Virus genome (UHGV): UHGV-0186543 | Source: a virus | Direction: 5' to 3' (one strand) | Length of the DNA stretch: 46,602 bases | Shown: positions 42,266 to 44,388 of the stretch, in pieces | Layout of the letters: every line of letters starts with the position of its first letter | Numbering within the stretch: position 1 is the first letter of the stretch | Translations under genes and position numbers: made by a program | The notes under the pieces: model-generated | What the model saw: the letters and a program-made list of their open reading frames with translations, nothing else | The model's database searches: none | Told to the model about the DNA's origin: nothing

Positions 42266-43072
42266 ATGGATATTAATGAATTTCCACCGGGAGTAATCGA
42301 ACATCTTGGCTGGTATGTCTACCGCCTGATTGACCCGAGAGATGGCAGTACGTTCTACGTAGGGAAAGGGAAAGGAAATCGTGTCTTTGCCCATATGCGT
42401 GGTGAGGTTGCTGCAGTGGATGATGATGATGAGTTACTGAGTAACAAACTCAAACAACTTCGGGAGATCAGATTAGCTGGTCTTGAGGTTATCCATGTTA
42501 TACATCGGCACGGTATGGCTGAAGAAAAAACGGCTTACGAAGTTGAAGCAGCTCTCATAGACGCCTATCCCGGCTTGACTAACATCATGAACGGTGCTGG
42601 CAGTAACGAGTTCGGTGCTGCACACATCAAAGAATTAATCGCTACGTACCAACCTGAAACAATTACGTTCCAACATAAGACCCTAATGATATCGGTTAAC
42701 AGAAGCTCAAAGGATATTGACCTCTATGATGCTGTACGTTTTAGCTGGCGTGTCAGCCTTGAACGCGCTCGTAAGGCTGAGGTCATACTGGCGACAGTAA
42801 GAGGAATTGTGAGGGGTGTATATATCGCAGATGAGTGGCTCAAGTCTACCCGTGAGAATTTTCCAGAGATACCCTCATGGGATGCGGATGATGAATTTGA
42901 AGCTACGCAAAGTTCCCGCTTTGGGTTCCGGGGTAGGGCTGCACCTCCTGAGATTACACAGCTTTATTTAGGTAAGAAGATCCCTGATGATCTCAGAAAA
43001 AAAGGTGCTATGTCTCCTGTGAGATATTCTCCCGGATTTGATTTCGGAATGGAACTGGATTTTAGATCGTAG
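42266..43072 (+). CDS. GIY-YIG nuclease-domain protein (start set at ATG 42266 rather than the TTG at 42221)
   Basis: N-terminal [29 protein letters not shown] matches the GIY-YIG core (GIY...YVG...R..H); C-terminal ~170 aa uncharacterised; promoter-like -35/-10 at 42205-42231. Confidence 0.6.
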
Positions 43073-43152
43073 CCAATATATGGCAGTAATGAATATTTCG
43101 GGGATCGTGTTTGCCGCGGTCACGGTTACCATTATTAGTGTGCTGAACTGAA

Positions 43153-44388
43153 ATGACTAAGCGAAATAAAACCCCAAAATTTAACTTGGACAAAGCTCGC
43201 AAAAAAGAGATTCGCGCAGCCTTAACCAGCGTGGGTATGACCCCTCAACATGATGGCTGGGCGGATTTGTTTATGTACGCTTATACAGATGGCAGCAATT
43301 TAAACGGTTTGCAATTGGCCAAAGCCTTATCAGTGCATCCAACGCTGATAAATGGTTTATCGCGCGGCATCAAATTAAAACCAGAGAAAGCGCTCTCCAA
43401 AAAACGACCATCAAAACCTACGCTGGCCGATAAACGCCGCGAGGCCAAACAGAAGGTCAATATGGGCTGGGAAGCGCTGATTCGCACTATGCCTATGCAA
43501 AAGCCAGGCGCACGCAAAAACCCTGAAACAGAAGCCCTTTGGGAGAATGCCCGTCGCCGTGGCACGTCCCAGGCCAGCACGCCAGCATTTACGCCGACAA
43601 TCATCCCGCGCAAGGTTTCCGCTCAAATCAACACCGAATTACCAGGCCTGCAATCAACGCAGATGGAAACACCGAAACGGTATGATTCTGTGAGCATGAC
43701 ATCAAAAGTTACGACAAAGCTGGATAATCGCGTCCTACAGGATTTTCTGGCAAAACACATTCCACCCAGCCAGCGTCGTGATGTTGAGCTTTATATCCAC
43801 AAACACCAGCATGAAGCCACCACGACCATTGAACTGGTACAGCGGTACCTGGATGATCAGGAAGAAAAGCAAATCATCCGAGAAGCCGAGAAGCTGGCCG
43901 ATGTTGTTCCGGAACTGGTAGCCGATGATCGAATCATCATGTCGCAGGAAGTAGTGGTCGTCGTGGAGGAAGAGAAACCCGCGCCCGCGCTTGGCCAACC
44001 TGTCAAACTCCACAGTACCCGAACCGCGCAGCGCATCGTTGAGCAGCGCGACGCGACGGCGCATATGCAGTTTGTTGAATGGGTATGGAATAATTTTGCT
44101 GGCCGTTGCGCGGTGACTGGCTGGCAGAACGGCGAACGATTGCAAGCGGCGCACATTGAGCCAGCTACCTCAGGCAATTTTAGCGCTGATAATGGCCTGT
44201 TGTTGACTCCAACGATACACGACTTACTAGACGCAGAGCTGATGGCCGTCAACCCTGAAACAATGACCGTACATTTTGCCCCAGGTATTGAGCTCGGCGC
44301 GATGTTTGAAGGCAAAGTGATTGAGCCTAAATTATGGCCGCTGAACATGGCCGCGTTGGTTAAACGCTGGAAAGAACGGAAATTCTGA
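43153..44388 (+). CDS. HNH nuclease-domain protein (HNH at C-terminus, basic N-terminal region)
   Basis: 411-aa ORF; C-terminal FAGRCAVTGWQNGERLQAAHIEPATSGNFSADNGLLLTPTIHDLLD fits the HNH motif with conserved His/Asn. Confidence 0.6.
   Translation: MTKRNKTPKFNLDKARKKEIRAALTSVGMTPQHDGWADLFMYAYTDGSNLNGLQLAKALSVHPTLINGLSRGIKLKPEKALSKKRPSKPTLADKRREAKQKVNMGWEALIRTMPMQKPGARKNPETEALWENARRRGTSQASTPAFTPTIIPRKVSAQINTELPGLQSTQMETPKRYDSVSMTSKVTTKLDNRVLQDFLAKHIPPSQRRDVELYIHKHQHEATTTIELVQRYLDDQEEKQIIREAEKLADVVPELVADDRIIMSQEVVVVVEEEKPAPALGQPVKLHSTRTAQRIVEQRDATAHMQFVEWVWNNFAGRCAVTGWQNGERLQAAHIEPATSGNFSADNGLLLTPTIHDLLDAELMAVNPETMTVHFAPGIELGAMFEGKVIEPKLWPLNMAALVKRWKERKF

Follow-up and report, generated by a model that had tools for sequence, protein, structure and literature searches.

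A prophage-borne CMoRE gene and a neighbouring HNH nuclease gene appear to be independent cassettes joined by recombination

Introduction

The defence protein PD-T4-3, first found in ECOR68 through functional selection, has been named CMoRE, and two of its structures are available (9U7U and 9U75; Nat Commun 2026, PMC12923530). CMoRE is a single-protein type IV restriction enzyme that cuts DNA containing 5-hydroxymethylcytosine (5hmC) or glucosyl-5hmC. Its N-terminal GIY-YIG domain carries a GIYxY-YIG motif with Y17, Y19 and Y31, a 15-residue acidic lid covers the active site, the neutralised mutant of which (4A) is toxic, and its C-terminal modification sensor has a novel fold (PMC12923530). 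The protein is sufficient by itself in published assays, and all 274 systems surveyed are single-component (PMC12923530). A CMoRE homologue requires DNA modification both in vivo and in vitro (PMC12366544), and PD-T4-3 is active against Tevenvirinae in a native host. Here, we analyse the viral genome UHGV-0186543, a stretch of 46,602 nucleotides that we call the window, in which the gene of a CMoRE protein (open reading frame 1, ORF1) is followed immediately by that of an HNH nuclease-domain protein (ORF2).

Several described HNH nucleases invite comparison with ORF2. TagI (SRA-HNH, PDB 6GHS) and VcaM4I (EVE-HNH, PDB 6YEX) are both modular, nucleoside triphosphate-independent, modification-dependent restriction endonucleases. 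EcoKMcrA of the e14 prophage (PDB 6GHC) is the product of a single prophage-borne gene and combines an N-terminal reader with a C-terminal HNH domain, and Cap5 is the SAVED-HNH effector (PDB 8FMH) of cyclic oligonucleotide-based antiphage signalling systems (CBASS). The GIY-YIG and HNH superfamilies also include homing endonucleases, such as Seg (GIY-YIG) and Mob (HNH) of phage T4, which are encoded by mobile phage-borne genes.

Our analysis suggests that ORF1 and ORF2 are probably two independent single-gene nuclease cassettes set side by side by recombination in the moron island of a lambdoid prophage, with ORF1 coding for CMoRE and ORF2 for a separate HNH nuclease. Both genes have intact catalytic motifs and are under purifying selection.

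Results

ORF1 encodes CMoRE

The window is the whole genome, circularly permuted, of a temperate phage. As reported in its preliminary description, two nuclease genes are arranged in tandem on the + strand: ORF1 (42266–43072, 268 residues) and ORF2 (43153–44388, 411 residues), with a spacer of 80 nucleotides. The two nuclease domains named there were recovered by Pfam with scores above the curated gathering thresholds. Residues 28–111 of ORF1 match LEM-3_GIY-YIG (PF22945, E 6.5e-13), with the motif residues present and conserved, and residues 319–367 of ORF2 match HNH_2 (PF13391, E 2.3e-8) close to the C-terminus, with H334, N347 and H356 conserved. The reading frame of ORF1 extends over 42221–43072 (+ strand) and would yield 283 residues from a TTG codon at 42221 (15 extra codons) or 268 from the ATG at 42266; the latter is the start used by the crystallised ORF1 homologue.

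ORF1 is CMoRE/PD-T4-3, an already known type IV modification-dependent GIY-YIG restriction endonuclease. Its residues 1–256 align with positions 1–254 of the 256-position PADLOC model of PD-T4-3 (PDLC04031, E 5.7e-138). Residues 1–258 match 9U7U of Escherichia coli APEC O1 (E 9e-164, ~95% identity) and 9U75 of O157:H7 (E 4e-151, ~89% identity). The alignment with these proteins is end to end, and ORF1 shares with them the tyrosine motif, the acidic lid, the C-terminal sensor and the prophage-borne, single-gene organization. The GIY-YIG domain (~42266–42610; Pfam match at 42347–42598) harbours the GIYxY-YIG motif with its third tyrosine, G15-W-Y17-V-Y19...F30-Y31-V-G (GWYVY...FYVGKG, numbering as in PMC12923530), in which Y17, Y19 and Y31 are encoded at 42314–42316, 42320–42322 and 42356–42358, respectively. 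The autoinhibitory acidic loop is present as V51-DDDD-E56 and aligned to the loop of 9U7U and 9U75, with lid residues D52–D55 encoded at 42419–42430. The modification-sensor domain corresponds to ~42638–43039. The preliminary description had noted large regions without a motif in both proteins. This observation holds for residues 1–300 of ORF2, which have no Pfam match even at E ≤ 10. It does not hold for the C-terminal half of ORF1, which is the CMoRE modification sensor described in PMC12923530.

Two features set ORF1 apart from the CMoRE proteins of APEC O1 and O157:H7. Its lid has four consecutive Asp residues where both of those proteins show a one-residue gap, and it bears a 10-residue C-terminal extension. 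The latter results from a 1-nucleotide deletion (CCCGGA-TTTGA in place of CCCGGGTTTTGA, region 43036–43072), by which the canonical CMoRE stop is lost and translation reads through 10 more codons (43040–43069). The same deletion is present in a sister prophage (locus L023) and in six E. coli genomes, and absent from Citrobacter and from UTI89. ORF1 is under strong purifying selection, with a ratio of nonsynonymous to synonymous substitution rates (dN/dS) of 0.06–0.07.

By analogy with the published proteins, which are 89–95% identical to it, the C-terminal domain of ORF1 would bind 5hmC or glucosyl-5hmC, its acidic lid would hold the GIY-YIG site shut on ordinary DNA, and the enzyme would degrade T-even phage DNA with no partner needed. 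Its ~95% identity to an assayed enzyme thus leads to the prediction that ORF1 cuts 5hmC- or glucosyl-5hmC-containing DNA and protects against T-even phages.

ORF1 and ORF2 lack conserved pairing

It had been proposed from the tandem arrangement that the two proteins might be the effector and the sensor of a two-component module. We found no conserved pairing of ORF1 and ORF2. ORF1-like DNA is present in 120 complete E. coli genomes, and only six of these also harbour ORF2; these six represent one prophage lineage (99.6% identity). ORF1 is found without ORF2 in the 114 others, including UTI89, where it belongs to a different prophage adjoining ssrA. Similarly, ORF1 relatives at 79 IMG/VR loci are accompanied by ORF2 at three, corresponding to the same prophage, and are alone at 76. 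In the other direction, three of the five lineages with ORF2 homologues lack ORF1. The homologues P0003, P0004 and P0005 (59–66% identity) have neither a GIY-YIG gene nor a remnant of one within 6–8 kb, and this is also true of the distant relatives P0017, P0018, P0023 and P0028. Fusion of the two domains in one protein (a 'Rosetta stone') was also considered and rejected: among the best 120 of 5532 clusters of the ORF1 family, no HNH fusion was seen, and PF22945 is the only nuclease domain there.

The sister prophage L023 has kept the ORF1 cassette (window 42090–43134, 97%, including the read-through extension), directly followed by the equivalent of window position 46336. It is therefore devoid of ORF2, of the lipoprotein gene that follows ORF2 in the window and of most of the gene for an LprI-family protein.

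Outside the window lineage, the two genes were almost never found together. The only other case is that of Citrobacter freundii (locus L003), in which a block composed of ORF1, ORF2 (399 residues, same ATG) and the gene for a 186-residue lipoprotein, 90–91% identical to that of the window, is placed after the tail-fibre genes of another prophage. The synonymous divergence (dS) between the window and Citrobacter is similar for the three genes (0.24, 0.19 and 0.17 for ORF1, ORF2 and the lipoprotein gene, respectively), which implies at least one transfer of the block as a whole. This co-occurrence is thus one ancestral joint later moved as a block, which demonstrates linkage and not dependence. 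Neither co-occurrence nor gene order was found to be conserved across independent lineages beyond this single block shared by the window lineage and C. freundii.

The spacer between ORF1 and ORF2 contains cassette edges. The homology of ORF1-only loci ends at ~43077, and that of the ORF2-only locus L004 begins at 43094. The spacer holds a relic of 23 codons (43081–43152, + strand), encoding MAVMNISGIVFAAVTVTIISVLN followed by a stop codon, which corresponds to the C-terminus of a 153-residue FUSC_2-like membrane protein. In L004 and L005, an intact copy of the FUSC_2-like gene ends 2 nucleotides ahead of the ORF2 homologue; the gene is frameshifted in L006 to L008 and cut to its last ~24 codons in the window and in Citrobacter. 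The relic shows where the two cassettes meet, and hence that the ORF1 cassette was attached to an ORF2 module shorn of its upstream gene. The last ~20–24 codons of the FUSC_2-like gene are open in all five lineages, ending 2 nucleotides before the HNH start, which could reflect translational coupling or the retention of a small membrane peptide.

An obligate ORF1–ORF2 pair was rejected on the basis of these co-occurrence counts and cassette boundaries. The effector–sensor hypothesis is likewise abandoned, since co-occurrence is conserved in neither direction, cassette boundaries lie between the genes and CMoRE works alone in published assays.

ORF2 is a rare modular HNH protein

ORF2 is present in 6 of 5426 complete E. 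coli genomes, and its full-length family is tiny, with five 90%-identity clusters among 5.8 billion proteins and only four representatives below E 1e-30 among 1.84 billion proteins. It matches a PHROGs family of unknown function (phrog_23050) and no NCBIfam family. A narrow-alignment search for ORF2-related loci in species-representative genomes returned none. The proteins of the wider family (20–30% identity) have in common the motif IPxSQRR..YIHKH in their middle part and the HNH domain, and the PF13391 proteins of the ORF2 clade comprise 1468 representatives.

We modelled ORF2 with AlphaFold2 from a 17-sequence alignment; an earlier alignment of five sequences had given an unusable model, with a predicted local distance difference test (pLDDT) score of 45.5. 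Three ordered modules are predicted, at residues 10–70 (pLDDT 86–91), 190–250 (73–81) and 300–408 (84–89), connected by basic, disordered linkers. The first is an N-terminal four-helix domain (43180–43362); the second, in the middle of the protein, is also helical and bears the motif IPxSQRR..YIHKHQHE (43720–43902). Each is followed by a linker. The third is the C-terminal HNH_2 nuclease domain (residues 299–408, 44047–44376). Its catalytic residues H334, N347 and H356 (encoded at 44152–44154, 44191–44193 and 44218–44220) are invariant in the 17-sequence alignment, down to 20% identity.

The overall dN/dS of ORF2, 0.22–0.28, indicates purifying selection. The HNH domain is the most constrained part of the protein (0.12–0.16), and the first linker (residues 76–190) is loose (0.29–0.37). 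The values for the N-terminal module range from 0.15 to 0.79 and are higher in three of four comparisons.

Residues 1–300 matched no structure and no Pfam family significantly, and a fold search of BFVD with ORF2 yielded matches only to the HNH domains of uncharacterised phage proteins. As in TagI and VcaM4I, the catalytic HNH (beta-beta-alpha-Me) residues are intact, and the fold of the nuclease domain belongs to the same subgroup. In contrast with those enzymes, ORF2 lacks a reader of the SRA, EVE or other PUA type; its residues 1–300 form two small helical modules with long basic disordered linkers. We looked for recognised modification-reader domains (SRA, EVE/PUA, McrA-N and winged helix) in ORF2 and found none, and in sequence it resembles VcaM4I only marginally (E 0.14). 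ORF2 is not filed as a member of the TagI/VcaM4I class, because a recognisable reader domain is one of the defining features of that class. EcoKMcrA resembles it in the mode of action that we propose. The HNH domain of CBASS Cap5 is of the same broad subgroup as that of ORF2 (Foldseek E 0.13, probability 0.99), with a match of ~80 residues only; unlike Cap5, ORF2 has no SAVED sensor, and its contexts contain no cyclase. HEC-06 was also considered as a relative and rejected, as it is GmrSD-like and unrelated. The HNH endonucleases of the NILS69 study are located in a separate restriction–modification island.

The members of the ORF2 family are found in accessory or defence regions of mobile elements, as variable cargo and not at conserved backbone positions. 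Their neighbours include an OLD-like ATPase-TOPRIM gene with a P4-type integrase gene, a DUF2357 gene, and genes for RES toxins, a Cap4 nuclease and a GmrSD_N fragment; one relative is carried by an IncFII plasmid. None of nine ORF2 contexts has a DNA methyltransferase domain within 6–8 kb or a conserved neighbour, which is consistent with a type IV HNH family without defining one. The genes downstream of ORF2 relatives code for a 186-residue lipoprotein, secreted proteins of 132 and 130 residues and a 197-residue protein. Since they are not homologous to one another, a conserved downstream partner was rejected. In the P0017 subfamily, 31% identical to ORF2 over 86% of its length, the gene of the 197-residue protein overlaps that of the nuclease and is 98% conserved between a metagenomic locus (L011) and a plasmid (L103); these two genes may constitute a genuine two-gene module.

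HNH domains ~50% identical to that of ORF2 are encoded by 1432 enterobacterial plasmids of PLSDB, of which 1034 are conjugative (IncHI-type backbones), and by the lytic Salmonella phages 7-11 and SE131. The plasmid loci that we analysed were L102 (IncHI1A, E. coli) and L103 (IncFIB/IncR, Enterobacter).

From its architecture, the absence of a methyltransferase gene or conserved neighbour and its cargo-type contexts in mobile elements, we infer that ORF2 is most likely a stand-alone nuclease directed against foreign DNA. Its C-terminal domain is of the TagI/VcaM4I type, and the fast-evolving N-terminal helical modules would confer specificity for a target or a trigger. It would act by itself, possibly in a modification-dependent manner, which would fit with the absence of methyltransferase and immunity genes beside it in the contexts examined.

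Genomic setting and neighbouring genes

A sigma-70-like promoter match, TTGTCA-17-TATTTT (42205–42233, + strand; consensus match only), is located 33 nucleotides upstream of the ORF1 ATG. On the + strand, a sequence-match scan of the interval from ORF1 to ORF2 detected nothing resembling a promoter or a terminator, which makes their co-transcription from the promoter-like site plausible.

The first part of the window (33–12201) contains genes for ORF6N, a DnaB-like helicase, YdaT, a CI-like repressor and an integrase. They are followed on the - strand by tail, head, terminase and lysis genes and then by Q (35200–35871). The genes for ORF6N and the helicase come directly after the counterpart of the last gene of the window in the E24377A prophage; the accessory island (38316–46457) that contains ORF1 and ORF2 therefore has the Q/nin-like genes on one side and the replication genes on the other. 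The + strand genes of the island run antisense to the early operon, as expected of moron genes expressed from a prophage. The phage combines lambda-like head and regulatory genes with a P2-like contractile tail, and its integrase gene (11155–12201) abuts the tail genes. The portal gene is intact in the window (27890–29464); that of the E24377A prophage is interrupted by an IS21-like element.

The gene downstream of ORF2 (44520–45080, + strand) codes for the predicted 186-residue lipoprotein, with the lipobox LSGC, that is part of the 90%-identical block shared with C. freundii. An N-terminal remnant of it follows the ORF2 homologue in L004 and L005, and it is not found beside other ORF2 relatives. 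It is probably a linked moron gene and not a partner. Small secreted-protein or lipoprotein genes, mutually non-homologous, follow ORF2 homologues in three lineages. They code for the 186-residue lipoprotein and then the LprI-family protein (45534–46457) in the window, a 132-residue repetitive secreted protein in L004 (9403–9801) and a 130-residue TolA-like lipoprotein in L006 (7614–8006). These genes could be separate surface-exclusion morons.

A repeat delimits the cassettes of the island

A repeat of ~110 bp brackets each gene cassette of the island, in constant orientation whatever the strand of the gene. The window contains three copies on the + strand: at 39173–39281, after ORF 38316–39095; at 40372–40475, between ORF 39574–40236 and ORF 40573–41940; and at 42079–42186, immediately upstream of ORF1. 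Their exact core, CTCGCTCACAGCG, occurs three times versus 0.11 expected. The repeat has four copies of GTCCGCT/AGCGGAC in alternating orientations (forward, reverse, forward, reverse). The homology of the ORF1 cassette to other loci begins in or at the third copy, namely at 42090 in L023 and at 42129–42145 in L003, L002, L025 and L026.

The repeat is also present in L008 (five copies), L007, L023 (three to four), L010 (three to four) and L009. It delimits cassettes in non-prophage islands that have cargo in common with the window, and in L023 the same repeats enclose different cassettes. Of the 5426 E. coli genomes, 607 contain the repeat, always unannotated, in one to three copies. An Rfam search of 37000–46602 gave only a chance match resembling a small nucleolar RNA and none for the repeat. 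RNAalifold detected no covariation, and single-strand folds were inconsistent among copies (z from -5.8 to +0.3). Canonical attC cores (RYYYAAC ... GTTRRRY) were not seen by eye in the repeat alignment, and no intI was found in any locus examined. The repeat is therefore not supported as an integron attC site or as a structured RNA. Literature searches with the repeat core and with RefSeq protein accessions retrieved nothing relevant. The repeat may serve as a linker through which recombination shuffles the cassettes.

The other cassettes of the island carry uncharacterised genes. ORF 38316–39095 belongs to phrog_19541, and ORF 39574–40236 codes for a multi-pass membrane protein. ORF 40573–41940 (- strand, 455 residues), in a stretch of low G+C content (39000–42000, 34–36%), has no match in Pfam, PHROGs, NCBIfam or PADLOC. 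A relative of this ORF, 94% identical in protein and 91% in nucleotide sequence, is present in L008, a non-prophage island in which an ORF2 homologue is also found, and the two cassettes thus come from a common pool of cargo.

Discussion

The preliminary description envisaged for the two genes a role in defence, as effector and sensor, or a role in homing. The idea of defence stands for ORF1, which is a characterised defence nuclease, and the effector–sensor and homing models were not upheld for either gene. We favour the juxtaposition of two independent cassettes, and several observations weigh against this interpretation or against the function that it assigns to ORF2. The biochemical activity, target and defence role of ORF2 are what we infer, the last based solely on domain type and neighbourhood. 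Its structural model has a mean pLDDT of 66, i.e. moderate confidence, its N-terminal modules match no known modification reader in Pfam and structure searches, and it has no convincing PADLOC system, the best match being to a generic HNH model (E 6.5e-5). As to its relation with ORF1, no terminator or promoter match separates the two genes, and they might be co-transcribed. In addition, ORF2 is never found without ORF1 in complete E. coli genomes (6/6), and the block that they form with the lipoprotein gene recurs in another prophage setting in Citrobacter, the dS values of the three genes being similar. Their linkage may thus have a functional benefit.

The first alternative concerns ORF2, which might serve the mobile element itself as a nuclease, whether in recombination or processing, in attacking competing elements or the DNA of the host, or in plasmid or phage maintenance, and lie beside a defence gene by chance. 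Such roles, distinct from host defence, fit the occurrence of related HNH domains in lytic Salmonella phages and on over 1400 enterobacterial plasmids, most of them conjugative, where their genes seem to belong to the backbone; the lack of a convincing PADLOC match also fits. However, the full-length ORF2 family is found in variable cargo regions, often beside recognised defence or toxin genes. ORF2 is also far from the terminase and packaging genes of the window (29694–31655) and oriented like the other moron genes. We therefore regard this alternative as unlikely.

Another possibility is that selection holds together a module in which ORF1 cooperates with ORF2, and perhaps with the lipoprotein, and in which ORF2 would act as a regulator or sensor or as a second layer against DNA that escapes CMoRE, such as that of unmodified or differently modified T-even variants. 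This would account for the presence of the three-gene block, ~90% identical, in a lambdoid prophage of E. coli and, at a different position, in a prophage of Citrobacter. The 80–111 nucleotides between the genes, devoid of a terminator match, and the nuclease domain of ORF2, of a kind used by modification-dependent enzymes, would also agree with it. Yet that co-occurrence represents one evolutionary event, and each gene is alone in most lineages. The spacer is the relic of another gene, so the junction looks accidental, no fusion was seen among the best 120 of the 5532 ORF1-family clusters, and CMoRE needs no second component in the published assays and survey. A module of this type thus seems quite improbable.

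Finally, free-standing homing endonucleases of the Seg or Mob type, spreading by cutting alleles that lack them, can be excluded with high confidence for either gene: mobility, patchy distribution and superfamily are shared with Seg and Mob, but the latter are of other subfamilies, have other DNA-binding modules and lie between conserved genes of lytic phages, whereas ORF1 has a LEM-3/UvrC-like and not an I-TevI/Seg-type GIY-YIG domain, with a modification sensor, and is ~95% identical to a demonstrated modification-dependent restriction endonuclease; Pfam found only LEM-3_GIY-YIG and HNH_2 and no NUMOD, IENR1, AP2 or HNH_3-type modules in either protein; and the neighbours differ at every locus, all being variable accessory islands of temperate prophages, plasmids or genomes and not core-gene arrays of lytic phages, so that no conserved gene adjoins them as a cognate target.

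Independent cassettes thus remain our preferred interpretation, with consequences that differ for the two genes. ORF1 adds only another prophage-borne allele of a solved enzyme, which current defence-system models would annotate automatically. The apparent operon of GIY-YIG and HNH genes does not belong among catalogued two-component systems, as the recombination joint is legible in its spacer. The boundary repeat may explain how such cargo is shuffled among the prophages and genomic islands of Enterobacteriaceae.

ORF2 is a rare orphan HNH protein. As a candidate for a restriction activity that depends on modification or is novel in some other way, it is well defined and cheap to test. In a bolder scenario, which we consider rather unlikely, ORF2 would found a new class of stand-alone nucleases against mobile elements, in which a TagI-like HNH domain is steered by undescribed helical readers of a modification or foreign-DNA feature that CMoRE misses, and the CMoRE–HNH block, with or without the lipoprotein gene, would be a travelling two-layer anti-phage package. 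If the N-terminal modules of ORF2 do read a DNA modification, they would provide the type IV restriction toolbox with a new reader fold, as the CMoRE sensor did.

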